From Patescibacteria group bacterium (GTDB lineage: Bacteria > Patescibacteriota > Minisyncoccia > Phycocordibacterales > JBHPGB01): a stretch of 64,000 nt of DNA. The first letter of the stretch is position 1. Each line of letters opens with the position of its first letter. The notes beneath the pieces were generated by a model. It searched no databases, was not told the DNA's origin, and saw only the letters and a program-made list of their open reading frames with translations. The stretch covers positions 6,261 through 70,260 of the forward strand of contig JBHPGB010000003.1 in NCBI GenBank assembly GCA_042571085.1, read 5' to 3'. The position numbers were made by a program, and so were the translations under genes. Below are positions 10,887 to 61,648 of this stretch, piece by piece.

Positions 10887-12326
10887 CTATAGTTTGTTAA
10901 TTTTGAAGCTATCATCTAAATCCTTCACCTCGTATCCCATTTCAGCTATTTTGTCTCGTAATTCATCAGATTTTTTGAAGTCTTTCTCTTCTCGAGCTTT
11001 TTGGCGCTCTTGGGCCAGTGCTCCAACCTCCTTTGGAATATCTTCTTTGGTAGTTTTTTGAGTGGCGAGATTCAATCCAAGCACATGATCAAAATCTATG
11101 AGTGTGGCATATTTATCTGCCGGAGAAATTTCAGGGTTTTTTATAAGTTCCCACATAAGTGCAATTGCTTTTGGTGTATCTAGGTCATCATTTATCGCCT
11201 CGGTGAATTTTTCTTTGTAATCCTCATTTATTTTTCCAGACGTGTCGTCAATACTTGAAACAAATGTGTAAAGTTTTCCAAGTGCATTTTGTGCGGCCAT
11301 TAGAGAATCAAATGTGAAATTTATTTTTGTACGGTAATGAGCAGTTAATACTAAGTAGCGGTAGGCTAGGGGATCAAATTCTTTATCAGTAAGAGTTTTA
11401 AGTGTAATAAAATTGCCAGCAGATTTCGCCATTTTTTCTCCACTCACATCTACAAAATCACTGTGCATCCAATAATTTACGAAAGGTTTCCCTGTTGCTG
11501 TTTCACTTTGTGCAATTTCATTTGTGTGGTGTATAGGAATCAAATCAATACCACCTGTGTGTACATCAAAATTTTCTCCAAGATACTTCATACTCATTGC
11601 AGAACATTCTAAATGCCAACCAGGGAATCCTTTACCCCAAGGCGAATCCCACCCCATATCTTTGTTAAATTTCCCAGAAAACTTCCAGAGAGCAAAGTCT
11701 ATAGGATTTTTCTTTTCTGGATTTGTTTCCACACGAGCACCAGCTTTCAAATTATCTATATCAAGCTTAGCGAGTTCACCGTAATTGAGAGCTTGTGAAG
11801 TGTCAAAATACACACCGTCTGAAATAGTGTATGTTGCACCTTTTTCTTCCATGCGTTTTATAAGCTCAATTTGTTCTTTGATGTGCTCTGTTGCCTTTGG
11901 AAAAGTTTGAGGACGCTTTATATTAACAGAGTCTAAGTCTTTAAAAAATTCGGCTGCATAAAAATCGGCAACTTCTTTCATTGCTTCTAGTGTGATTGGT
12001 TTACCTTCGCGCTCCAGTGCCTTAGTCATTTTATCAATCCCTTCGTCGGCGTCGCTTGCCAAATGCCCAACGTCAGTAAGGTTCATTACTTGGTTCACTT
12101 CATACCCATTGTACTCAAACATTCTACGTAAAATATCAGCAAAAATATATGCACGAAAATTACCGATATGCGCGTAATCATAAACTGTTGGCCCACAATG
12201 ATACATACCAACCTTATTTGGTTGGAGTGATTTGAACCCTTCTTTTTCTCTGGTTAGAGTGTTGAATAATTGTATTTGCATAATTAACATAGTACCCGCC
12301 AAACTTTTGTTTCGCAAGCTCCACAA
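10887..12326 (-). CDS. cysS: Cysteinyl-tRNA synthetase (true start probably near 12281, at MQIQLFNTLT)
   Basis: HIGN (YAHIGNFRAY) and KMSKS (KMAKSAGN) class I motifs. Confidence 0.9.
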   Translation of the reverse strand: MWSLRNKSLAGTMLIMQIQLFNTLTREKEGFKSLQPNKVGMYHCGPTVYDYAHIGNFRAYIFADILRRMFEYNGYEVNQVMNLTDVGHLASDADEGIDKMTKALEREGKPITLEAMKEVADFYAAEFFKDLDSVNIKRPQTFPKATEHIKEQIELIKRMEEKGATYTISDGVYFDTSQALNYGELAKLDIDNLKAGARVETNPEKKNPIDFALWKFSGKFNKDMGWDSPWGKGFPGWHLECSAMSMKYLGENFDVHTGGIDLIPIHHTNEIAQSETATGKPFVNYWMHSDFVDVSGEKMAKSAGNFITLKTLTDKEFDPLAYRYLVLTAHYRTKINFTFDSLMAAQNALGKLYTFVSSIDDTSGKINEDYKEKFTEAINDDLDTPKAIALMWELIKNPEISPADKYATLIDFDHVLGLNLATQKTTKEDIPKEVGALAQERQKAREEKDFKKSDELRDKIAEMGYEVKDLDDSFKINKL

Positions 12327-12339
12327 AACTTAGGCGGGT
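12294..12339. terminator. Hairpin ACCCGCCAAAC-[variable core]-AACTTAGGCGGGT between corA and cysS
   Basis: Same arms as 1902..1947. Confidence 0.55.
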
Positions 12340-24483: not shown

Positions 24484-25611
24484 CTACTTCTCGTGTTTTA
24501 GTGCGAGGTTAAGGATTTCGCGGGCTATTTTTTCTCCGGCATCTGGGCGGGCAAATTCTTTTGCAGCTTGCTTCATTTCTTCTCTTGTATTTTCGTCGTC
24601 CATAAGTCTATCAATTGATGACATGAGCACATGTGGACTAAGATTTTTTTCTTCCACAACTAAACACGCTCCGCTTCTGGCATAAGTAAATGCGTTGCTG
24701 CGTTGATCGTGACTTATCTCCTCTGGGATTGGAATAATAATACTTGGTAAGCCCCAAGTAGCGATTTCAAATATAGAGGATCCGGCACGCGATATTACAA
24801 CATCAGAAATACCAGCAGACATCTTCATTGCAAGGTCGTTTAGATATTCAAAAGGTTTGTATCTATTTTTGTTTGGTGAGTCTTGCAGTATCACTGAAGC
24901 TGTACCAGAAATTTCTTTAAAGTGTTCTTTTCCTGTTTGGTGTATAACTTGATATTTTTTTACTAGCTCAGGCAATACGCCAAGTATTGCCTCATTTATT
25001 CTTTGTGCACCTTGTGATCCGCCGAGTATTAAGATAACAGGAGTTTGTTTTTCTAATTTCAAAAACTCATGAGCACCACTTGTTTGTGGGATTGAAATAT
25101 TTTTACGTATTGGATTTCCTGTGAGCGCGACACGATCTTCTGGGAAATATTGTGCTGCATCCGGATATGAAACCGCAATTCGTTTTGCAAACTTCCCTGC
25201 CCACTTATTTACTTTTCCGGGCTTTGAATCAGATTCATGTATGATTACTGGAATTCCTAAAAAGCGAGCAGCGAAAAGTGTCGGAAAGCTACCGTAACCC
25301 CCTTTGCCGAATACTACGTCAGGGAAGATTCTATACAATTGCCACGTTGCTTTAATGATTCCTGTTGCTGTTTTAAAAATATCAAAGAAGTTTTTGATTG
25401 AGAAATGTTTACGAACTTTACCAGCTGGAGCTTGTTTGAATTCTATACCGTGCTCAAAAAGCTCTTTTTTATCATATGGATTAGGTGCAACAAAATACAT
25501 TTGTGTTTCCAACAAATGTTCTTTTGATGCCAGTTCATTTATTTCTTCAGCTATTGCGATAATTGGATAAAAGTGTCCACCTGTACCGCCACCTGTAAAT
25601 AGAATTTTCAT
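24484..25611 (-). CDS. murG: UDP-GlcNAc:undecaprenyl-PP-MurNAc-pentapeptide GlcNAc transferase MurG
   Basis: 375 aa; GGTGGH N-terminal motif; GT-B fold; follows ftsW. Confidence 0.9.
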   Translation of the reverse strand: MKILFTGGGTGGHFYPIIAIAEEINELASKEHLLETQMYFVAPNPYDKKELFEHGIEFKQAPAGKVRKHFSIKNFFDIFKTATGIIKATWQLYRIFPDVVFGKGGYGSFPTLFAARFLGIPVIIHESDSKPGKVNKWAGKFAKRIAVSYPDAAQYFPEDRVALTGNPIRKNISIPQTSGAHEFLKLEKQTPVILILGGSQGAQRINEAILGVLPELVKKYQVIHQTGKEHFKEISGTASVILQDSPNKNRYKPFEYLNDLAMKMSAGISDVVISRAGSSIFEIATWGLPSIIIPIPEEISHDQRSNAFTYARSGACLVVEEKNLSPHVLMSSIDRLMDDENTREEMKQAAKEFARPDAGEKIAREILNLALKHEK

Positions 25612-25726
25612 CCCGTTAGAGATAGGAAAGATAATTTCCGTATCTGATTATGTGTTGTTAAAAAATTGACCAAAATCTCGCCATGTTCCATTTTGCCACA
25701 AAAGACAGCTTGGATCTCTAACGGGA
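25611..25726 (-). mobile_element. TIR element copy A (116 bp): 13-bp terminal inverted repeats TCCCGTTAGAGAT; TGAA/TTCA 4-bp direct repeats at 25607..25610 and 25727..25730; abuts the murG start codon
   Basis: Both ends read directly from the sequence. The terminal A of the element plus the duplicated TGAA rebuilds the murG ATG. Confidence 0.55.
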
Positions 25727-25734
25727 TTCATAAA

Positions 25735-28938: not shown

Positions 28939-29490
28939 TTAAGCCACTTCCTCTTCTTCCTCTTTTTGTTCTTCAAAACTCTCTATTTCCACTTTCACAT
29001 TTTCATAATCTGGCAGCTCTGTAATATCTGTTATACCAAGATGAGCGAAAAGTTCAAATGTTGGTTTGTATAGAAAGCTTCTTTGGTCTTCAGGGTTGCT
29101 CGTGCGTTCAACAAGTCCGCGCACCATCAAGTTGCGTAGAATGAAGCCTGAGTTTACACCACGAATGTAGTCTACCCTACTTTTTGCAATTGGTCCGAGA
29201 TATAAAACTATAGCAAGTGTTTCCAGACCTGCTTTACCCAAGTCTTTGTTCAGCTCTTCTTTTACGAGCGCTTCAATAATGTCTCCAAATTCAGGAGCAG
29301 TACCAATCATAACCACATCGTCTTTTTTAATTAATCTTATTCCCCTGTCGCTTAGGCTTTCTTTCAATTCAGAAACAGCATTAAGAGCATCTTCTTCTTG
29401 CACGCTCAACATAGCAGCCAAATTTTTTATTTTTGTTGGCCCGTTTTGGTAAAAAAGTATTGCTTCTATTTTTTTTGATAATTCATTCAT
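28939..29490 (-). CDS. scpB: Segregation and condensation protein B
   Basis: 183 aa; two winged-helix repeats; adjacent to scpA. Confidence 0.85.
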   Translation of the reverse strand: MNELSKKIEAILFYQNGPTKIKNLAAMLSVQEEDALNAVSELKESLSDRGIRLIKKDDVVMIGTAPEFGDIIEALVKEELNKDLGKAGLETLAIVLYLGPIAKSRVDYIRGVNSGFILRNLMVRGLVERTSNPEDQRSFLYKPTFELFAHLGITDITELPDYENVKVEIESFEEQKEEEEEVA

Positions 29491-29659
29491 CCCGTTAGAG
29501 ATAGGAAATAAAATTTCCGTATCTGATTATGTATTGTTAAACATTGATCAAAATCTCATTATATTCCATTTTGCCATAAAAGACAGTTTGGACCTGCCCG
29601 CCACTGCCTAATTCGTCCCAAATGTCAGTCAGGCGATGGCAGGCGGGTATCTAACGGGA
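29490..29659 (-). mobile_element. TIR element copy B (170 bp) carrying a nested 57-nt GC-clamped hairpin module; TTCA direct repeats; abuts the scpB start codon
   Basis: Same ends as copy A; insertion CCTGCCCGCCACTGCC...GGCAGGCGGGTA at about 29596..29652. Confidence 0.55.
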
Positions 29660-29672
29660 TTCATGTTGTTTT

Positions 29673-31455: not shown

Positions 31456-32608
31456 TTATCAGTGTAACAAATAATGTTGCCACTGCAGCAAATATGAAAA
31501 TAAATTTTATGCTAAAGAAAAATGAAATTATAAATGCAATACCAATCATTAATATCCTCCCAATATTTAGTGACATTTCTCGTAATACAGTATATTCGTC
31601 CACATAATGTCCATTATCTGCAGCTTGGTCATATTGTGTTGTATCAACAGATGTGCGATGTATTACTCTACCTACATTGTGGTATGTGTCTGCGATAAAA
31701 ACCTGGAATGCTGTTTCTATGAAAAGTTTAACAATCCATCCTGTGGTGTTAAATATTGATCCAATAACTACCATACGTTTTTGATTCCAGGTATCAAGTA
31801 AATTTCCAATGAAAGTTCGTATTATTATAATTGCAAAAATTGTTAATGAGGATACGATACCTACTGTGAGATATTTTTCATCAAATAGCATGAATATAAA
31901 AATAGGCCATATTATTGCTGATACAATACTTTGAAACCCATCAGCAGTGAATGCTATAAACATACCCCTGTTTTCTTTGTGAAAAAGTTTTTTGAAAGTT
32001 TCCAAGTACCCCCAACTATAATGTTCTCGTGTACTTTCTATAAAAAAAGCTGGAATTATACTGAATAAAAACAAAAAGGCTGAAACAAGGAAAGCTCCAC
32101 TGAAAGTGAAATATGCAATCAGTGCGCCACCGACAAATGGCATTATTGTACCTATTATTTGAGCAATATTACGAAGAAGAGAGATTTGTCGACCACGAAT
32201 GTCTTCGTCGGTAAATTTTGCAAAGTCTACATGATATGGAAGCCAGTATAATAATTTATATATAATAATTGCTAATGTGAATATGACAAGAATAAGATAA
32301 GGGTTATAATCCCAAAAATATAGAGAAAAAATTGATATTAGAGCGAAAGGTACCGCAATTATCATCATTTTTTTTAGGCTAAAGCTGTTTAATATTCTTG
32401 ATGCAATTGGATATAAAAAAAGGACCAAACCAAAATTTATTGCATAGATGATGAGAACTGCTGTGAAAGAATTATCAAATTTTGTAAAAAAGAATATTGG
32501 TAGGAACAATCCAATTACTCCAAACGCAGCCTGTAGTAAAACGCGCCCAGTGTATAGCCAGGCAAGATTTTTTGATATTTTTAAATTTTTGTAATCAAAC
32601 AATTTCAT
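31430..32608 (-). CDS. Polytopic membrane transporter (MFS-like), hypothetical
   Basis: 392 aa; about 12 TM helices. Confidence 0.45.
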   Translation of the reverse strand: MKLFDYKNLKISKNLAWLYTGRVLLQAAFGVIGLFLPIFFFTKFDNSFTAVLIIYAINFGLVLFLYPIASRILNSFSLKKMMIIAVPFALISIFSLYFWDYNPYLILVIFTLAIIIYKLLYWLPYHVDFAKFTDEDIRGRQISLLRNIAQIIGTIMPFVGGALIAYFTFSGAFLVSAFLFLFSIIPAFFIESTREHYSWGYLETFKKLFHKENRGMFIAFTADGFQSIVSAIIWPIFIFMLFDEKYLTVGIVSSLTIFAIIIIRTFIGNLLDTWNQKRMVVIGSIFNTTGWIVKLFIETAFQVFIADTYHNVGRVIHRTSVDTTQYDQAADNGHYVDEYTVLREMSLNIGRILMIGIAFIISFFFSIKFIFIFAAVATLFVTLINEQHDMAH

Positions 32609-32778
32609 CCCGTTAGAGATAGGAAATGTAATTTCCGTATCTTATTAATGGTAAATTGATTATGTATAAATATTTTATCAGTTTCCCGCTTGCCACAAAA
32701 GACAGTTTGGACCTGCCCGCCACTGCCTAATTCGTCCCAAATGTCAGTCAGGCGATGGCAGGCGGGTATCTAACGGGA
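32608..32778 (-). mobile_element. TIR element copy C (171 bp) with the same nested hairpin module as copy B; TTCA direct repeats; abuts the start codon of the transporter gene
   Basis: Nested module 32716..32772 is 100% identical to that in copy B. Confidence 0.55.
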
Positions 32779-32785
32779 TTCATTT

Positions 32786-34741: not shown

Positions 34742-35040
34742 ATATAGACGTGAAAAATGCCAGAGCAAGCTCCGACATTCTTCAGTGTAGTCACCTCCCG
34801 GAGGAGATAACTACCCTTTTATTATATTCAATATTGAAATCTGGTCAATACTTTTTGTAGATAATTGTGGATAACTCCCAGTGCCTATTCTTTGTAATCT
34901 GACTATTCCACCAGACGTGAAAAATGCCAGAGCAAGCTCCGACATTCTTCAGTGTAATTATTTTCCCGGAGGAAAACAATTACTCTCCTAATATATCAAT
35001 TTCTGAGATTCGCGCAAGTCCTATTTTCAATAGAGTATAA
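34742..35040 (+). repeat. Family-2 composite repeat, locus 1 (unit1 plus unit2; each unit begins with the invariant 42 nt AGACGTGAAAAATGCCAGAGCAAGCTCCGACATTCTTCAGTG)
   Basis: About 90% identical to 37322..37652; unit2 is also present alone at 39198..39372. Confidence 0.7.
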
Positions 35041-35046
35041 ATATTG

Positions 35047-36717
35047 TTATTTGTCAAATTCAGGTAAAAATAGCCTTGCGATGCGTAACTCTTCAAATGA
35101 GTATTTTTCTTTGAGTGCTTTGTATACTGGTGAGAGTTTTGTGTCTCCAGATTTTAGAAAAGCCTTGTGCATTTCCATGAGCGCTTTTTGTTTTGGTTTA
35201 AATGTACTTAAATCAAGCTTTGGATCTTTCTCTTTTAGTTTTTCAAGATGCCCAAGGATGGTGTTTTCAACCACCCCTCTCTTCTTTGCTAGTTGTTTTA
35301 AATTTAATCCCTTTTCTATCAGAAGTCTTGTCTTTTCATATGTAGAGATTTTCTCTTCAACCTTGTCTACTTTTTTATTCTTATTTTTCTCGATTTCTTT
35401 TTTATTTATAGTACCCCCACATTTAAGCACAAAATCGTTGTGCATTTTTTCCATATCTCCATCAGAAAAACGACCTATTACCTTACTCCACTTTTCAGAT
35501 TCTTTTAGAAGGTGTTCATTGATTTGAGCCACTCTTGGGTGCACTGCGAAAGCCATTTCGTTTATACCAGAAAGAAGAAGACCTCCGAGCGTGCGTAGAC
35601 GCGAGAGAGCCACGTATCCTTGTCCTGGCACGAAAGATTTAGACAAATCAATTTCTGCTGCATCCATACTCAAGCCCTGGCTTTTGTGTATCGTAATTGC
35701 CCACGCAAGCCGCAGTGGCAATTGCTCCACCATGCCTAGCACTTTCCCATCCTCCTCAACAGACCATTCCGAAGGTGAAACATGAATTAGTTCACCGGAA
35801 AAAGTTTTGACTACTGGCATGCCATCTTCAAAACCTTTTACAACACCAAGCGTGCCGTTAACGTATCCTTCCTCAAAATTGTTTTTTATAAACATCACCA
35901 CCGCGTCCTTCTTTAGTTTGAGTGTTTCGGATGTCAAAATACTCTTTTTGAGTGAGCTTATGATAGTGGCCCGCCCTTTTGAAGACATCTCAAATTTATA
36001 CTCTGTGCCTGGTAGCTTATCCAATTCTTTTTGATTTAGCTCGTCTACATCGGCATTGTGAGTATACAGGCGCGTCGGTGTGATGTTTCCTTTTATGCTC
36101 GTCTGCTCAGAAAGAATATTACGCGTTTTGTCGCTCACAGAGCCGCCTCGTATTTCATTCAGGATACTTTCTAAAGTACTGTCACCTTGGCGAAATTGTT
36201 CCTCTAAATAACAGACACGAACATCCATTTCTCTCCACGCCTCTGATGCGATAGCGAATTCTGGCTCAGTGTATCCGCGTACAATTGGCGGCAATTGAAA
36301 GAAGTCACCCGAAAGCACCACCTGCATCCCTCCAAACGGCTCAGGGTTACGTTTCATCGCTTTACACACCCTGTTTACATTATCTAGCAGCTGCGGTGAA
36401 AGCATGGAAACCTCGTCTATTAAAAGTATCTGTGTTTTTTCAAACCTGGTCCACAGGTGCTTCTTTCCCTCCATTGAATCCAAATCCATTTCAGATATGT
36501 GTTCTTTAATACCAATGCCACTCCATGAGTGAATGGTGGTGCCTCCTATATGAGTCGCCGCGATACCCGTTGAGGCTGTCACACCGATACTGACTCCCCT
36601 ATCTTTTAAATATGAAATATACTCATTTAAAACATGAGTTTTACCACTACCGGCGGCCCCTGTCAGATATACGTTTCTACCAGCCTTTAAAATTTTTAAC
36701 GCTTCGGCTTGTTTCAT
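35047..36717 (-). CDS. SF1B DNA helicase (PIF1/RecD-like) with C-terminal HTH-like tail
   Basis: 556 aa; Walker A GAAGSGKTH, Walker B LLIDEVSM, GDFFQLPPI, ITIHKSQGLS. Confidence 0.7.
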   Translation of the reverse strand: MKQAEALKILKAGRNVYLTGAAGSGKTHVLNEYISYLKDRGVSIGVTASTGIAATHIGGTTIHSWSGIGIKEHISEMDLDSMEGKKHLWTRFEKTQILLIDEVSMLSPQLLDNVNRVCKAMKRNPEPFGGMQVVLSGDFFQLPPIVRGYTEPEFAIASEAWREMDVRVCYLEEQFRQGDSTLESILNEIRGGSVSDKTRNILSEQTSIKGNITPTRLYTHNADVDELNQKELDKLPGTEYKFEMSSKGRATIISSLKKSILTSETLKLKKDAVVMFIKNNFEEGYVNGTLGVVKGFEDGMPVVKTFSGELIHVSPSEWSVEEDGKVLGMVEQLPLRLAWAITIHKSQGLSMDAAEIDLSKSFVPGQGYVALSRLRTLGGLLLSGINEMAFAVHPRVAQINEHLLKESEKWSKVIGRFSDGDMEKMHNDFVLKCGGTINKKEIEKNKNKKVDKVEEKISTYEKTRLLIEKGLNLKQLAKKRGVVENTILGHLEKLKEKDPKLDLSTFKPKQKALMEMHKAFLKSGDTKLSPVYKALKEKYSFEELRIARLFLPEFDK

Positions 36718-37321: not shown

Positions 37322-37652
37322 CTATAGACGTGAAAAATGCCAGAGCAAGCTCCGACATTCTTCAGTGCAGCTACCTCCCGGAGGAGATAACTACCTTTCT
37401 ATTATATTTAATATTGAAATCTGGTCAATACTTTTCTGTGCATAACTGTGGATAACTACCAATGCCTATTCTTTGTACCCTGACTATTTCACCAGACGTG
37501 AAAAATGCCAGAGCAAGCTCCGACATTCTTCAGTGTAATTATTTTCCCGGAGGAAAACAATTACTCTCCTAATATATCAATTTCTGAGATTCACGCAAGT
37601 CCTATTTTCAATAGAATATAAATATAAAAATATGTCAAATTTAGACAAAATG
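37322..37652 (+). repeat. Family-2 composite repeat, locus 2 (unit1 plus unit2) between engB and pyk
   Basis: Direct copy of locus 1. Confidence 0.7.
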
Positions 37653-39092: not shown

Positions 39093-39197
39093 AAACTATT
39101 ATTTGTTTGATTAATATAAAAAAATAAAAAGGCGCCATTGGCGTCATTTTTACTCCCCACTTGTTATTTGACTAACCTGGTGTTCATGTGCAAATCC

Positions 39198-39372
39198 GGG
39201 CGTGAAAAATGCCAGAGCAAGCTCCGACATTCTTCAGTGTAATCATTTAATTATTTCCCGGAGGAAACAGTTAAACAATTACTCCCCTAATATATCAATT
39301 TCTGAGATTTGCGCAAGCCCTATTTTCAATTGAGTATAAATATCAAAATATGTCAAATTGAGGTAAGTTTAG
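39198..39372 (+). repeat. Family-2 repeat, locus 3 (unit2 type only)
   Basis: Invariant 42-nt head plus a conserved tail TATATCAATTTCTGAGATT..GCGCAAG.CCTATTTTCAAT.GAGTATAAATAT. Confidence 0.65.
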
Positions 39373-55182: not shown

Positions 55183-57564
55183 CTAATTTGTGACGATACT
55201 CACTAGTTTGTTCGGTACACATATCACCTTTTTCACATCCTTTTCTTCGGTCCATTTTTTGACAGATTCAAGCTCTTGTGCCTCTTTTTTAACCATTTCC
55301 TCATTGCTATCTGCCTCGATTTCAAAGGTTCCTCGTATTTTTCCGTTCACTTGTACAGCGATCGTGACTGTCTTATCCATAGTCTTACTTTCATCGTATT
55401 CAGGCCATTCTTCAAGATGGATTGATGTGCTGTTTCCTAATTCCGCCCATAATTCTTCTGTTATGTGTGGTGCGAATGGAGCAAGTAATTTTAGAAAGTT
55501 TTTATATTGTGTTTGATTAATTTCTTGACGCTCAGCTTGATTCACAAAAATCATCATTTGTGCAATTGCTGTATTGAATTTCATTTGCTCAAGATCCTCA
55601 CCAACTTTTTTAATAGTTTGATTTAAAACAGTTTCAGCATTTGCCTCATCGGCATGTTCTGATGTCTTATCCTTCAGCTTCCACACACGTTCCAAAAATC
55701 GATATGTCCCAACAATGTTATCTTCTTTCCACATAACGTCTTCTTCAAGCGGGCCTGCAAACATCATATACATACGCACTGCGTCAGCACCAAATTTTTC
55801 TACCATTGTCTCTGGATTCACAACATTACCTTTAGACTTACTCATTTTCTTTCCTTTCTCATCTAGGACCATTCCTTGGTGTCTTAGTTTCAAAAACGGT
55901 TCGTCAAAATTAAGTACCCCGATTTTATTAAGTGCTTTAGTAATAAATCGTGCATACAAAAGATGCATATATGTATGCTCCGCCCCACCGATATATGTAT
56001 CCACAGGTAGCCAGTGTTTGAGCCTCTCTTTTCCACAAAATTCTTTTTCATTGTGCGGATCAGGATATCTCAAATAATACCAAGATGAACATACAAATGT
56101 ATCTAGAGTATCAACCTCTGGTGTCCACCCTTCACCAAATATTTTTTCAGTGCGATCAAAAAGCTCTTTTGATTTTGCCAGTGGTGCTGTACCTGTTGGC
56201 ACAAAATCAACATCCTCTGGCAAAAGCCACGGCAGATTTTCTTCACCGACAAATTTTGCCTCACCTTCTGGAGAATACACAATCGGAATCGGCGCTCCCC
56301 AATATCTTTGACGTGAAATAGACCAGTCACGAAGGCGGTATGTATTTGTTAATTCCCCGCCTACAAATTCGGTGATTTCTTTTTTGGCTTCAACAACACT
56401 CTTTCCGTCAAATTTGCCAGAATTAATTAGTTCCCCGTCACCAACGTACGCTTCTTTTGATATATCCCCGCCAGAAATAACCTCCGTAATTGGTAAATCA
56501 AACTTCTTTGCAAACTCAAAATCACGTTCATCGTGTGCTGGCACGGCCATAATTGCCCCTGTTCCGTATCCAGCAAGCACGTAATCAGCAATAAAAATTG
56601 GTATTTCTTCTTGATTAGCAGGATTTATTGCTTTCACACCTTTTAATTCAACTCCAGTTTTTTCTTTTCCTTCCATTCTTTCTAGTTCAGTCTTTTTCTG
56701 TACACCTTCAAGATATTTTTCAACCTCACCCCAGTTTTCAATAGTTTCTTTGAGCCCTTGTACTAATTCATGTTCAGGCGCAAGCACACAGTAAGTACAG
56801 CCAAACAAAGTATCTGGTCTTGTAGTAAACACTTCCATTTCTTTGTCAGTATTTGAAACTTTGAATTTTAATTTTGCTCCCTCCGATTTTCCTATCCAGT
56901 TTTTTTGATTTACCTTTGTATGTTCTGGCCAGTCCACCTTACCCAGTCCATCGATTAAGTCATCAGCGAAATCAGTGATTTTGAAAAACCATCCGGGCAC
57001 TTCTTTCATTACCACTTCACTTTTACAGCGCTCGCACGCACCATCTTCCACCTGCTCATTAGCAAGAATTGTTTTACAGGATTCACACCAGTTTGTAAGA
57101 CTAGTTTTTTTGTATGCCAGATTGTTTTCAAAGAGTTGAGCAAATATCCACTGTGTCCATTCATAATACTCAGGGTTTGATGTCACTACCTTCTCATCGA
57201 AATCATAATTAAAGCCAAGAGACCTCATTTGTTTAATATAGTTTTCAATATTTTTTACAGTGGTTTCTTTTGGGTGTACTTTTGTTTTTATCGCATAATT
57301 TTCTGCAGGTAAACCAAAAGAGTCAAAACCTTGCGGATGGAGCACATTAAAGCCATTCATTTTTTTATAGCGGTAATAAATATCACTCGCAGCATAACTT
57401 TCTGTGTGGCCCATATGTAGTCCGTCTCCAGATGGATATGGGAACATATCAAGTAAATAATACTTTTCTTTTGAAGTGTCATCTTTATCGATTTTTGCAA
57501 CAGTATCCTTCTCCCATTCCTTCTGCCACCTTTCCTCTATTTTTTTATGATTATATTCTTTCAT
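55183..57564 (-). CDS. leuS: Leucyl-tRNA synthetase
   Basis: 793 aa; HMGH and KMSKS motifs; CP1 editing domain. Confidence 0.9.
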   Translation of the reverse strand: MKEYNHKKIEERWQKEWEKDTVAKIDKDDTSKEKYYLLDMFPYPSGDGLHMGHTESYAASDIYYRYKKMNGFNVLHPQGFDSFGLPAENYAIKTKVHPKETTVKNIENYIKQMRSLGFNYDFDEKVVTSNPEYYEWTQWIFAQLFENNLAYKKTSLTNWCESCKTILANEQVEDGACERCKSEVVMKEVPGWFFKITDFADDLIDGLGKVDWPEHTKVNQKNWIGKSEGAKLKFKVSNTDKEMEVFTTRPDTLFGCTYCVLAPEHELVQGLKETIENWGEVEKYLEGVQKKTELERMEGKEKTGVELKGVKAINPANQEEIPIFIADYVLAGYGTGAIMAVPAHDERDFEFAKKFDLPITEVISGGDISKEAYVGDGELINSGKFDGKSVVEAKKEITEFVGGELTNTYRLRDWSISRQRYWGAPIPIVYSPEGEAKFVGEENLPWLLPEDVDFVPTGTAPLAKSKELFDRTEKIFGEGWTPEVDTLDTFVCSSWYYLRYPDPHNEKEFCGKERLKHWLPVDTYIGGAEHTYMHLLYARFITKALNKIGVLNFDEPFLKLRHQGMVLDEKGKKMSKSKGNVVNPETMVEKFGADAVRMYMMFAGPLEEDVMWKEDNIVGTYRFLERVWKLKDKTSEHADEANAETVLNQTIKKVGEDLEQMKFNTAIAQMMIFVNQAERQEINQTQYKNFLKLLAPFAPHITEELWAELGNSTSIHLEEWPEYDESKTMDKTVTIAVQVNGKIRGTFEIEADSNEEMVKKEAQELESVKKWTEEKDVKKVICVPNKLVSIVTN

Positions 57565-57680
57565 CCCGTTAGAGATAGGAAATAAAATTTCCGTATCTGA
57601 CTAATTATTAATTCTTTATGTATGGATATTTTACTTAATTCCCGTAGTGTCATAAAAAACAGTCTGGATCTTTAACGGGA
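57564..57680 (-). mobile_element. TIR element copy D (117 bp); TIRs TCCCGTTAGAGAT / ATCTTTAACGGGA; TTCA direct repeats; abuts the leuS start codon
   Basis: Read directly from the sequence. Confidence 0.55.
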
Positions 57681-57705
57681 TTCATTTGTTTAAATAATAC
57701 CACGC

Positions 57706-58762: not shown

Positions 58763-59887
58763 TTAAATTTTAAATTCCACAACATCACCGTCTTTCACTA
58801 TATATTCTTTCCCCTCCGTTCGTATCAGACCCTTATCACGAGCGGCGGAATGTGATCCTGAATCAAGTAGGTCTTGCCAATTGATTATTTCTGCACGTAT
58901 AAACTTATCTTTAAAATCTGTGTGAATTGCCATACCAGCCACTGGAGCAGTTGAATCTTTTTTGATTGTCCACGCACGCGATTCTTCTTGGCCTGTTGTG
59001 AAGTACGTCATGAGTCCAAGAAGGTCGTAACTTGTGCGAATCAAATCATCCACACCGTCAGACCCCTCTTCTGCGCCAAGCTCTTTTCTGAATTCTACTC
59101 GATCGTCTTTTTCTAATCCTGAAAGTTCACCTTCAACTCCAGCATCAACGATAACAAATTTTGAATCTGTTTCTTTGAAAAATTCCATCAGTTTTTGCCA
59201 TTGCTCACCTTGCGTCTCATCTAGGTTTTTTGCTCCAGCTTTTTTATTAAATACATACAAAATGGGTTTCATTGTAAGCAAGTGTAACCCTTTCATAATT
59301 TCAAGCTCTTGTTCAGTATATTCTAGTGAGTTTGCAAGTTTACCAGCATCGAGTGCGATCTCGACTTTTTTCAATACTTCTTTTTCTGCAATCGCTTCTT
59401 TGTCTCCCCTTTTCACATCTTTCTCAATATTTGCTGAGCGTTTTGAAACAGTTTGAAAGTCTGCGAGTATAAGCTCAAGATTAATTACCTCAATATCTCG
59501 CATTGGATCTATACTCCCGTCTACATGTGTAATTTCTCCATCGTCAAAAATACGCACCATTTCAGCAATAGCATCAACTTCTCGCACATTAGATAGAAAT
59601 TTATTCCCAAGACCTTCTCCAGCCGAAGCGCCTTTTACAAGCCCTGCAATATCCACAAATTCAATTGCGGCTGGAATGGTTTTTTCTGAATTAGAAAAGC
59701 TGCTTAGCTTAGTTAGTCGTTCATCAGGCACGGCAACAACGCCCACGGATGGATCAATGGTACAAAATGGGTAATTTTCAGCTGGCACAGACTTTTCTGT
59801 GAGAGCATTGAATAATGTTGATTTGCCTACATTTGGCAGGCCGACAATTCCTATAGATAACATGGCAGTAGTATACCCAGCACTCAA
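58763..59887 (-). CDS. ychF: Ribosome-binding ATPase YchF (true start likely the ATG at about 59863, [11 protein letters not shown]; the track's upstream extension is the translated hairpin)
   Basis: G1 [12 protein letters not shown]; C-terminal TGS domain. Confidence 0.9.
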
Positions 59888-59918
59888 CTATTTTGCAAAG
59901 CAAAATAGTTGAGTGCTG
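59872..59918 (-). promoter_or_regulatory. 22-bp perfect palindrome ACCCAGCACTCAACTATTTTGC aaa GCAAAATAGTTGAGTGCTGGGT immediately upstream of ychF, overlapping a TTGATA-17-TATACC promoter at 59919..59947
   Basis: Perfect inverted repeat read directly from the sequence. Confidence 0.5.
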
Positions 59919-60044
59919 GGTATATGGTATTAAGTATTAGGTATCAAGTGTCACATTGACACATTATCAGAGTTATTATAGTGTAATCATGGAAGTTCAG
60001 AGATGTCAATTTGTTTATAATTATTACACAGAGGGGAATTTGGT

Positions 60045-60585: not shown

Positions 60586-60613
60586 TAAGCAACATGTTAT
60601 AATACACTCATGC

Positions 60614-60715
60614 ATCCCGTTAGAAATTTTTGTTTCTTTCTACTCCATCAAGATTTACCATTGGGTTTAACGGGTTCACTTATTAAAAAATTATAAATAT
60701 AAAATTTCTAACGGG
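60614..60715 (+). mobile_element. TIR element copy E (divergent, inverted orientation): 15-bp TIRs TCCCGTTAGAAATTT / AAATTTCTAACGGGA, with an internal TIR-like GGTTTAACGGG; abuts the start codon of the plus-strand BASS-like gene
   Basis: Flanks tgca / tgaa; the terminal A plus TG again rebuilds the ATG. Confidence 0.45.
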
Positions 60716-61648
60716 ATGAAAATTTTAAAAACAATTAGAAAATTTACTGAAAATCATTTCATTATTGTTGGCTTGGCTTTAGTACTCGGTGTTTTATATG
60801 GAAACTATTTAGCTCAATATGCATATTTGAGTACCACATTACTTGCGGCTATTTTCTTTTTGAGTTCACTTAAGATTGATTTGAAGAAAGTGAGACAGTA
60901 TTTAGGAGATAAATTAGTGCTTGCTATAGTAAACATATTCATGCTTTTTATTTTGCCTGTTGCTGTTTATTACGTAACAAATGCAATATATCCGACACTT
61001 GCAATCGCATTTCTTTTGCTTGCAGCAATGCCAGCGGGAATGACAGCACCACTTCTTGCAGAGATTAGTGGAGGTAAACAAAGCTTAGCTCTTGTGCTGA
61101 CAGTTACAACTTCACTCTTAGCACCAATTACTGCACCATTCATAATTAAAACAGTTGCCGGTGCGCAAGTTGATGTAAGTTTTTGGGCAATGTTTACCAC
61201 TTTGGCTATTGTGATTTACATTCCATTTATTTTTGCTCAGATTATCAAACGATTTTGGCAGCGTGCAATTGATAAAGTCGCGATTTCATTCAAACCAATT
61301 TCTGTAATTTTGCTCGGACTTTTAATTATGGTTGTAATTGCAAAACAATCCGACGCAATTATAGATGGATTCAAAAACGGCGATGAATCAATAATATATC
61401 TTGTCGCCCTATTTATTTTCTTTTTGATACTACATGTTCTCGGCCACATAACTTCCTTTTGGAAAAAAAGAGACGAACGCATCACGATCACCGTGTGCCT
61501 CACATATATGAACTTCACACTTGCTATAGAATTGGCCAATAAATTCTTCACAGAGCCTAATATTGTAATACCGGTCGTGTTCTCAGTGATACCGTGGGCG
61601 ATTATGCTTATTCCATATAAACGCATCATGCAAAAAAAGACCAGTTAA
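60716..61648 (+). CDS. BASS-family (bile acid:Na+ symporter-like) membrane transporter
   Basis: 310 aa; about 9-10 TM; size and topology typical of this family. Confidence 0.5.
   Translation: MKILKTIRKFTENHFIIVGLALVLGVLYGNYLAQYAYLSTTLLAAIFFLSSLKIDLKKVRQYLGDKLVLAIVNIFMLFILPVAVYYVTNAIYPTLAIAFLLLAAMPAGMTAPLLAEISGGKQSLALVLTVTTSLLAPITAPFIIKTVAGAQVDVSFWAMFTTLAIVIYIPFIFAQIIKRFWQRAIDKVAISFKPISVILLGLLIMVVIAKQSDAIIDGFKNGDESIIYLVALFIFFLILHVLGHITSFWKKRDERITITVCLTYMNFTLAIELANKFFTEPNIVIPVVFSVIPWAIMLIPYKRIMQKKTS

Follow-up and report, generated by a model that had tools for sequence, protein, structure and literature searches.

The window analysed here, a 64,000-nt stretch of contig JBHPGB010000003.1 from a Patescibacteria group bacterium, contains five short elements with terminal inverted repeats (TIRs), each of which ends in the A of the start codon of a downstream gene. 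These five copies (designated as A–E) are very probably non-autonomous members, similar to miniature inverted-repeat transposable elements (MITEs), of a family of small transposable elements of Patescibacteria (candidate phyla radiation, CPR), and a GIY-YIG nuclease would be their mobiliser. Judging from the junctions, the elements insert at A|TGRR, mostly in the ATGAA of a gene start, and duplicate a 4-nt TGNN sequence. The element itself ends in A, and the host ATG is therefore restored at the proximal junction, with the original ATG retained at the distal junction. Comparison of the ends links the short elements to a longer partner with a predicted GIY-YIG nuclease gene. We place high confidence in the mobile-element interpretation. 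The family is apparently undescribed, as no description of it was found in the open full-text literature (subscription-only articles were outside the scope).

Five elements at start codons of the window

The window was searched with TCCCGTTAGAGAT, tolerating up to two mismatches. Exactly 10 sites were found, corresponding to five inverted pairs, while shuffled windows contained a mean of 0.87 sites and none of 100 shuffles reached 10. The same family was recovered independently by a repeat finder. All elements have 13-nt TIRs and their lengths are 102–171 nt. An earlier annotation of the window from its letters alone (the sequence-only reading) had placed all five copies at start codons, each rebuilding the ATG, and this was confirmed: in 5/5 copies, the final element base serves as the A in the start codon (ATG) of a real open reading frame (ORF). 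Pfam names for the downstream ORFs of A–E are MurG, ScpB, MFS, LeuS, and SBF, and the ORFs upstream of copies A and B are FtsW and ScpA, respectively. Elements precede five of the approximately 69 window genes, including the essential murG and leuS.

Copy A has the perfect 13-nt TIRs and TGAA flanks described for it earlier. It is the only copy with perfect TIRs, as one mismatch is present in D and two each in B and C. The TGAA duplication that had been attributed to all five copies is perfectly matched on the gene strand in A–D, but the flanks of copy E are TGCA/TGAA, with one mismatch. The pairwise identities, previously put at 85–90%, were measured as 90% for A–B, 93% for B–C, and 79–82% for the remaining pairs. 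As had been noticed, the best-conserved portion is the gene-proximal ~45 nt, including the GGAAAT/ATTTCC hairpin. One type of proximal half is common to A and B and another is common to C and D, so that the copies look mosaic (recombined). The extra length of B and C is due to a 55-nt GC-rich hairpin nested beside the distal TIR, and this hairpin (CCTGCCCGCCACTGCC...GGCGATGGCAGGCGGG) was observed only in these two copies.

Copy E had been described as an inverted copy at 60614..60715. These coordinates were one base off (the correct range is 60615–60716), and its interior aligns to A–D in neither orientation, which gives no basis for calling it inverted. Its TIR is a variant of its own, TCCCGTTAGAAAT, which can be extended to about 23 bp, and the GGAAA/TTTCC hairpin is absent. 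By comparison of these parts, copy E belongs to a different subfamily from A–D. Rfam searches with the whole window (gathering threshold) and with copy A (permissive threshold) gave only a tRNA and chance-level matches. PADLOC returned only weak matches to known defence systems.

Short and long elements across Patescibacteria

The family was scanned with the exact gene-proximal 19-mer TTTCCTATCTCTAACGGGA against a species-representative genome collection. The 19-mer was found in at least 118 genome stretches, and all but two of them are labelled Patescibacteria/CPR. Among the matches listed, to which the copy counts given below also refer, the lineages are Parcubacteria/Paceibacterota groups, Saccharibacteria, and others, with up to nine 19-mer matches per genome. 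TG follows the 19-mer directly and completes an ATG in 116 of the 124 matches, and ORFs of at least 60 aa start at this proximal ATG in 72/77 short and 25/26 long elements. The partner TIR lies at two favoured upstream distances, giving elements of ~117–133 nt or 275–283 nt. In 1.29 Mb of fetched CPR DNA, with 147 left and 149 right TIR cores, TIR pairs were found at ~120 nt (96 pairs), ~170 nt (5 pairs), and ~280 nt (29 pairs), and none was longer than 300 nt. No copy of the 19-mer was found in a viral contig collection, and a phage vector was not identified.

Alignment of 74 short elements revealed a shared 13-nt left TIR and a shared right end of ~45 nt, with an AT-rich, lineage-specific interior. 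The conserved right end reads ACGGAAAY-loop-RTTTCC-TATCTCTAACGGGA. Its hairpin covaries: the first inner pair is T-A in 52 and C-G in 35 elements (paired in 90/96 versus 71 expected), and the second is G-C in 41 and C-G in 21 (paired in 70/86 versus 39 expected). The 14-bp terminal TIR stem is invariant, and no compensatory change was found in any of its 14 pairs, which argues for sequence-specific recognition and not for mere pairing. The long form has a counterpart of the right-end hairpin, namely Gly-Lys-Arg codons and CGTTTCC just 5′ of the right TIR. With this hairpin common to both forms, the short form looks derived from the long one by internal deletion.

Several matches stand apart from the typical elements. 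Loci L006, L147, and L157 carry a variant subfamily whose TIRs are longer (TCCCGTTAGAAGC...) and which lacks the GGAAA/TTTCC hairpin, and L006 includes a 58-nt mini-element of this subfamily. Contig CAZSQN010000002.1 (L102; 243 kb, 49% GC), which carries the unconfirmed label Gammaproteobacteria, has a typical short element at the pilC start in a type IV pilus operon. JAWBXD010000026.1 (L101), labelled Bathyarchaeia, has the 19-mer without a partner TIR and looks like a chance match.

Evidence of movement

The 4-nt flanks match perfectly in 57/80 short and 20/26 long copies. The matched flanks other than TGAA are TGGA (8 cases), TGAG (5), TGTA (2), TTTA, TCAA, and CTGA, and two TTCA/TTCA cases are inverted insertions. 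The mobile, MITE-like nature and 4-bp duplication proposed for the window copies are thus upheld by new copies that carry matching flanks, including non-TGAA ones. Furthermore, 73/75 murG loci of related metagenomic lineages are empty and read straight into ATGAAAAT (ATGAA), as the sequence-only reading had predicted for orthologous junctions. The remaining two loci carry a variant element. The filled/empty numbers in the fetched DNA are 7/63 for murG, 4/24 for ftsW, 1/11 for a gltX-like gene, and 2/6 for a trmD-like gene.

Interiors with 93–98% identity are located before different genes within one genome in Wolfebacteria NVSU01, Taylorbacteria JAPLZG01, and Nomurabacteria CALRET01, and one Saccharibacteria contig has two intact GIY-YIG copies of 97.6% identity before different genes. 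The best between-genome interior matches are about 70%. Tandem stacks at a single start codon, some with a decayed second element, were found at five loci (L002, L041, L057, L109, and L157), as expected if every insertion regenerates its target. Among loci picked via murG and not via the element, 4/4 distinct elements have TGAA flanks and are situated at the ATG of an ORF with the same orientation.

The murG and ftsW starts are independently occupied in distant lineages (L004, L058, L114, L147, L157, L169, and the window), and the occupants include different subfamilies and both size classes. Exact-protein look-ups for strain-level empty sites gave one contig of a metagenome-assembled genome (MAG) from the same organism, with the same filled sites, and nothing else. 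On this contig (GCA_042577165.1, JBHPEC010000029.1, 6131 bp; L202 and L203), ScpB and the MFS protein are identical to those of the window and the same sites are occupied. For MurG and SBF with the start found in the window, no database record was present, and the widespread GIY-YIG protein P0059 was always found in the same context. The short MAG contig ends near this family and near a second repeat family of the window (see below), which suggests that such repeats fragment CPR assemblies.

The long form and its GIY-YIG nuclease

The sequence-only reading had called for a full-length element with the same TIRs and a transposase. A partner with the same TIRs exists, at 275–283 nt, but it encodes a GIY-YIG nuclease and not a known transposase. 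The likeness to IS5 and piggyBac elements suggested earlier does not hold either, since this ~280-bp unit encodes only the nuclease. The long form contains little besides one ORF that fills the element end to end, and the ORF is intact with 94–96 codons in 19/26 long copies. It starts in frame at the retained host ATG. The left TIR corresponds to codons 2–6 (NPVRD) and the right TIR to the last six codons (FLSLTG), while the stop is the TGA of the proximal TGAA duplication and overlaps the host ATG as ATGA. Most long copies have an additional Met near codon 10. This internal Met is absent in loci L016, L078, and L097 and in 5/88 database proteins, and the borrowed ATG is therefore the sole candidate start in those copies. 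Gene callers (proteins P0001–P0120) mostly begin the ORF at the borrowed host ATG, giving 94–95 aa.

Among the best 120 database homologues, the FLSLTG end is present in 103 and the MxPVR start in 90. There are more than 3,300 homologue clusters, and their names include "GIY-YIG nuclease family protein", "putative endonuclease", and, wrongly, "excinuclease ABC subunit C". Purifying selection acts on the protein, with a ratio of nonsynonymous to synonymous substitution rates (dN/dS) of ~0.17. Although synonymous changes are close to saturation, the nucleotide sequence of the termini does not vary. The N-terminus encoded by the TIR is predicted to be disordered, which fits a constraint on the DNA and not on the peptide.

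The ORF of the long copies matched the Pfam family GIY-YIG (PF01541) with an E value of 1e-17 and 64 bits (cut-off 22.6). Residues Y14, Y25, G27, T29, R35, H39, E59, and E71 are invariant in 33 homologues, and by analogy the conserved Tyr, Tyr, Arg, and Glu would be the catalytic core residues. A profile search gave E values of 2e-10 for PDB 1ZG2, 5e-4 to 6e-2 for SLX1, and 0.06 for I-TevI. The predicted structure (predicted local distance difference test score, 88) has an Slx1/UPF0213-like fold, and a Foldseek search placed 1ZG2 and six Slx1 chains at the top, with E values of about 1 for I-TevI and 2.6 for UvrC. The nearest solved structures are the UPF0213 proteins BH0048 and EF2693 and Slx1, which are well ahead of I-TevI and UvrC. 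By these profile and model comparisons, the protein is a predicted nuclease of the Slx1/UPF0213 branch of the GIY-YIG superfamily. A survey of the superfamily described the Slx1-like branch as vertically inherited and repair-related and placed the selfish GIY-YIG genes in the UvrC-related branch (PMC1564403).

Target choice and orientation

The dinucleotide following TG is AA in 72% of the matches listed, and GA and AG make up most of the remainder. In the same DNA, 29% of 819 natural ORF starts (first ATG) read ATGAA. The second-codon dinucleotides AT, GC, TT, and C-N account for ~45% of natural starts and are almost never targeted. The excess of AA (72% versus 29%) and the avoided dinucleotides show that the A|TGRR preference is real. 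The sequence-only reading had left a choice between target specificity and selective retention. The former has a real basis in this preference, but the preference alone explains neither the restriction to gene starts nor the single orientation. In the window, ATGAA is present at 25 gene starts, of which five are occupied, and at 207 coding and 15 other intergenic sites, of which none is occupied. The proportion of matches at an ATG (116/124) is far above the 62% calculated from the ratio of start to intergenic sites, although selection against other intergenic sites may contribute. The orientation bias may reflect either an intrinsically oriented insertion or a need for the hairpin end beside the gene. 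A cohesive-end "cut and ligate" model, which would explain the orientation bias, is not favoured; it predicts that flanks at non-TGAA sites are mostly mismatched, but the majority of those observed match.

Expression of genes behind the element

Strong −10 boxes peak sharply 6 nt upstream of natural murG start codons, and the same maximum is found before the distal ATG of occupied sites. In the window, a −10 box is present at that position in 17/69 genes and a Shine-Dalgarno-like motif in 12/69, and the gene organisation in the window and at loci L119–L198 is of the leaderless type. With −10 boxes directly before the distal ATG, the element lies at the 5′ terminus of the mRNA or close to it, and this mRNA is often leaderless. 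The CATAAT motif had been read as a −10-like box of an outward promoter. This was not borne out, as no positioned −10 box was found inside 83 short elements and the native promoter is located just before the distal ATG. TATCTC, which lies 7 nt before the ATG, was also considered as a −10 box and rejected because the conserved final T is missing.

The distal ATG opens an upstream ORF (uORF) whose length had been given as about 27 codons. This is the length in copy A, but the uORF has 11 codons in B, C, and D and 28 in E. Among the uORFs of short elements, 45/58 stop early, 13/58 end at a TAA 4 nt before the ATG, and 0/58 reach the TGA. Neither length nor sequence is conserved beyond the TIR-encoded MNPVRD. 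Translational coupling through the uORF was rejected for the short form, since most uORFs end too early and none reads to the TGA. Special selection on the distal ATG was not detected: agreement with the proximal copy is no more frequent at its T and G than at the two positions of the target-site duplication (TSD) that follow. The RNA folding suggested in the sequence-only reading gave folds in which both TIRs are predicted to pair and to bury the proximal AUG. The predicted folds are more stable than those of shuffled sequences, with z values of −3 to −7.

Proposed mechanism and alternatives

In the mechanism that we propose, the nuclease would mobilise both size classes. The Slx1-like enzyme probably cuts the base of a TIR stem or cruciform and would make a 4-nt staggered cut at the target, and the DNA ends would be joined by host repair enzymes. 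Many genes of CPR bacteria may lack a leader and have their −10 box 6 nt upstream of the start codon, so that the element, placed at the 5′ end of the mRNA, would exploit the initiation signal of the host. The host gene behind a long form would be translated via termination-reinitiation at the ATGA. Behind a short form, ribosomes initiating at the distal AUG may melt, on passing through the left TIR, the 14-bp TIR helix by which the proximal AUG is otherwise hidden. A stronger version holds that the 275–283-bp unit is a complete autonomous transposon with the 94–96-aa Slx1-like GIY-YIG nuclease as its transposase, by which the short forms are relayed, and that a start-codon relay sustains the host genes. 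We consider the chances for and against this version to be even.

Several observations weigh against a family of mobile elements driven by the nuclease. Neither a transposition event, nor an excision product, nor a strain-level filled/empty polymorphism was observed, and the empty sites are between lineages only, where the nearest MurG is just 63% identical. The GIY-YIG gene is not present in the window. The exact 19-mer seed means that the conservation of the right end is partly an effect of ascertainment. In the window alone, the calculated probability that 5/5 insertions fall at starts (25 start versus 15 intergenic sites) is about 0.08, and the gene-start restriction and the orientation bias of ~116:3 could be due to selection and not to mechanism. 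Most short uORFs stop 50–100 nt before the proximal ATG, and the expression model proposed for the short form is tentative. With respect to the enzyme, a nuclease alone is unable to join DNA, the combination of TIRs and a TSD of fixed length is classically the mark of DDE transposases, and we know of no GIY-YIG nuclease that acts as a DNA transposase.

The last two points speak for a conventional transposase located elsewhere, either of the DDE type (IS5, IS1595, or piggyBac-like) or domesticated, as in the REP/RAYT system. It would move both size classes, and the GIY-YIG gene would be a passenger or an addiction/homing module. The numerous short copies without any long copy among the matches listed from several genomes, for example DATDWZ01 (nine) and NVSU01 (seven), are in line with such a helper. 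However, a TIR pair of more than 300 nt is lacking in the 1.29 Mb of CPR DNA, so that a larger cargo was never seen, the GIY-YIG ORF includes the TIRs, and purifying selection acts on its product. On balance, we regard a conventional transposase as unlikely, although one encoded by a gene that these TIRs do not flank may exist.

The sequence-only reading had itself offered a conserved cis-regulatory leader or structured RNA with palindromic ends that is not mobile. The location directly upstream of an ATG in one orientation, the covarying right-end hairpin, and the folds that are more stable than shuffled controls would all suit a leader. In contrast, occupancy is sporadic at murG, where 73 of the 75 orthologues are without an element, and equally so at the other genes, and the host genes are unrelated. 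The duplicated 4-nt flanks, the 14-bp stem without compensatory change, the lineage-specific interior with near-identical copies within genomes, and the lack of an Rfam match likewise make an ancient leader highly improbable. An exapted influence on expression may still exist as a secondary effect. Homing, in which a GIY-YIG endonuclease would cut empty sites and the element would be copied by homologous repair (intron-less homing), is even less credible: GIY-YIG enzymes are classical homing endonucleases, free-standing ones are found between phage genes, and the stop/start overlap with the next gene resembles phage arrangements, but homing needs flanking homology at one locus and yields no target duplication, whereas here unrelated host genes share only ATGRR, variable matched 4-nt flanks are observed, and the protein groups with Slx1/UPF0213 and not with the I-TevI type and is missing a separate DNA-binding domain.

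Implications

The genomes of CPR bacteria are among the smallest and most streamlined bacterial ones. The mobile-element family proposed here shows nearly harmless parasitism in such genomes, as it lands on a start codon, rebuilds the ATG, and uses the host initiation signal. Should the GIY-YIG protein drive the movement, one more transposase chemistry would be added, and the lower size limit for autonomy would drop to about 280 bp. An autonomous 275–283-bp unit would define a DNA transposon class with a new type of enzyme and would be, to our knowledge, by far the smallest autonomous mobile element. It would also represent a gene without its own promoter, start, or stop, which becomes a gene only on a host start codon. 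Thousands of database entries named only "GIY-YIG nuclease family protein" or, wrongly, "excinuclease ABC subunit C" are reinterpreted by these results. The family is a systematic source of start-codon mis-annotation in CPR genomes and probably also of contig breaks. As a compact, sequence-defined insertion system, it is a candidate tool for the few tractable Saccharibacteria.

Features of the window

The positions of the elements and of other repeats are listed in Table 1. The second repeat family is intergenic and unrelated to the elements at start codons. It has a 53-nt core (GACGTGAAAAATGCCAGAGCAAGCTCCGACATTCTTCAGTG...) present five times and a 94-nt unit present three times, adjoins genes for a PIF1-like helicase, an EngB-like GTPase, and pyruvate kinase, and has no Rfam match. 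A perfect palindrome and a repeated hairpin (ACCCGCCAAACTTTT...AAAACTTAGGCGGGT) were also observed, and they are probably terminators or another small repeat.

Table 1 Positions of the start-codon elements and other repeats in the window. Flanks and 5′ contexts are given on the gene strand.
Feature	Position	Strand	Location	Details
Copy A, 116 nt, non-autonomous	25611..25726	-	ftsW stop/murG start	Perfect 13-nt TIRs; 25611 is A of murG ATG; right-end hairpin 25625-25639
Copy A, distal target duplication (TGAA)	25727..25730	-	3 nt past ftsW stop	Proximal duplicate 25607-25610; distal ATGAA is 25727-25730 plus base 25731
Copy B, 170 nt	29490..29659	-	scpA/scpB junction	29490 is A of scpB ATG; TGAA flanks 29486-29489 and 29660-29663; hairpin 29504-29518; nested hairpin ~29593-29647
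Copy C, 171 nt	32608..32778	-	MFS transporter gene start	TGAA flanks 32604-32607 and 32779-32782; hairpin 32622-32636; nested hairpin ~32712-32766
Copy D, 117 nt	57564..57680	-	leuS start	TGAA flanks 57560-57563 and 57681-57684; hairpin 57578-57592; 5′ context: terminator hairpin, then TGGTATTAT + 8 nt, then distal ATG
Copy E, 102 nt, variant subfamily	60615..60716	+	SBF transporter gene start	TGCA 60611-60614 and TGAA 60717-60720; TGTTATAAT + 6 nt before distal ATG
Second repeat family	34743-35069, 37323-37650, 39196-39366		Intergenic	
Perfect 25-nt palindrome	59872-59924			3-nt spacer
Repeated hairpin	1902-1947, 12294-12339			

Comparison with known systems

Operationally, the window copies are MITEs: they are small, non-coding, and multicopy, with TIRs, a TSD, and empty sites. 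Similar to the Correia/NEMIS elements of Neisseria and the RUP elements of Streptococcus pneumoniae, they have ~100–170 nt, no protein, TIRs, a fixed TSD, and many copies, have a longer coding partner with the same ends, and are transcribed together with the genes beside them. In the Correia elements, the TIR stem forms in the mRNA and is processed. In the present family, unlike in these MITEs, the 280-bp partner encodes only a GIY-YIG nuclease instead of a DDE transposase, the insertion point lies inside the initiator codon, with one orientation and a rebuilt ATG, and an internal promoter was not detected. Completion of the partner ORF by the target duplication also distinguishes the family from MITE and insertion sequence (IS) families.

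REP/REPIN sequences with their RAYT gene resemble the present family in that dispersed short palindromes accompany one small nuclease-type gene flanked by the same repeats, and in that a structured repeat is conserved while its stem covaries. However, RAYTs are HUH/Y1 enzymes, and REPINs have no target duplication and are mostly located after genes. The IS200/IS605 and PATE elements are likewise very small, with a 4–5-nt target and oriented insertion, and their conserved subterminal hairpins, like those found here, point to a single-stranded intermediate. They differ in having no TIRs, no target duplication, and an HUH transposase.

With regard to the nuclease, small selfish GIY-YIG genes of T4-like phages (seg genes) are also wedged between host genes and use the expression signals of their neighbours. 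Homing of their enzymes, which possess a separate DNA-binding domain, is directed to one locus by homology, and TIRs and TSDs are absent. The best sequence and fold matches are the UPF0213 proteins (BH0048, PDB 1ZG2; EF2693, PDB 1YWL; and E. coli YhbQ), which are similar in size (~90–100 aa) and share the conserved Tyr, Tyr, Arg, and Glu. In contrast to the UPF0213 proteins, which are regarded as vertically inherited repair-type nucleases (PMC1564403), the CPR proteins are bounded by TIRs, occur in multiple copies, and have a basic C-terminal helix that is partly encoded by the right TIR.

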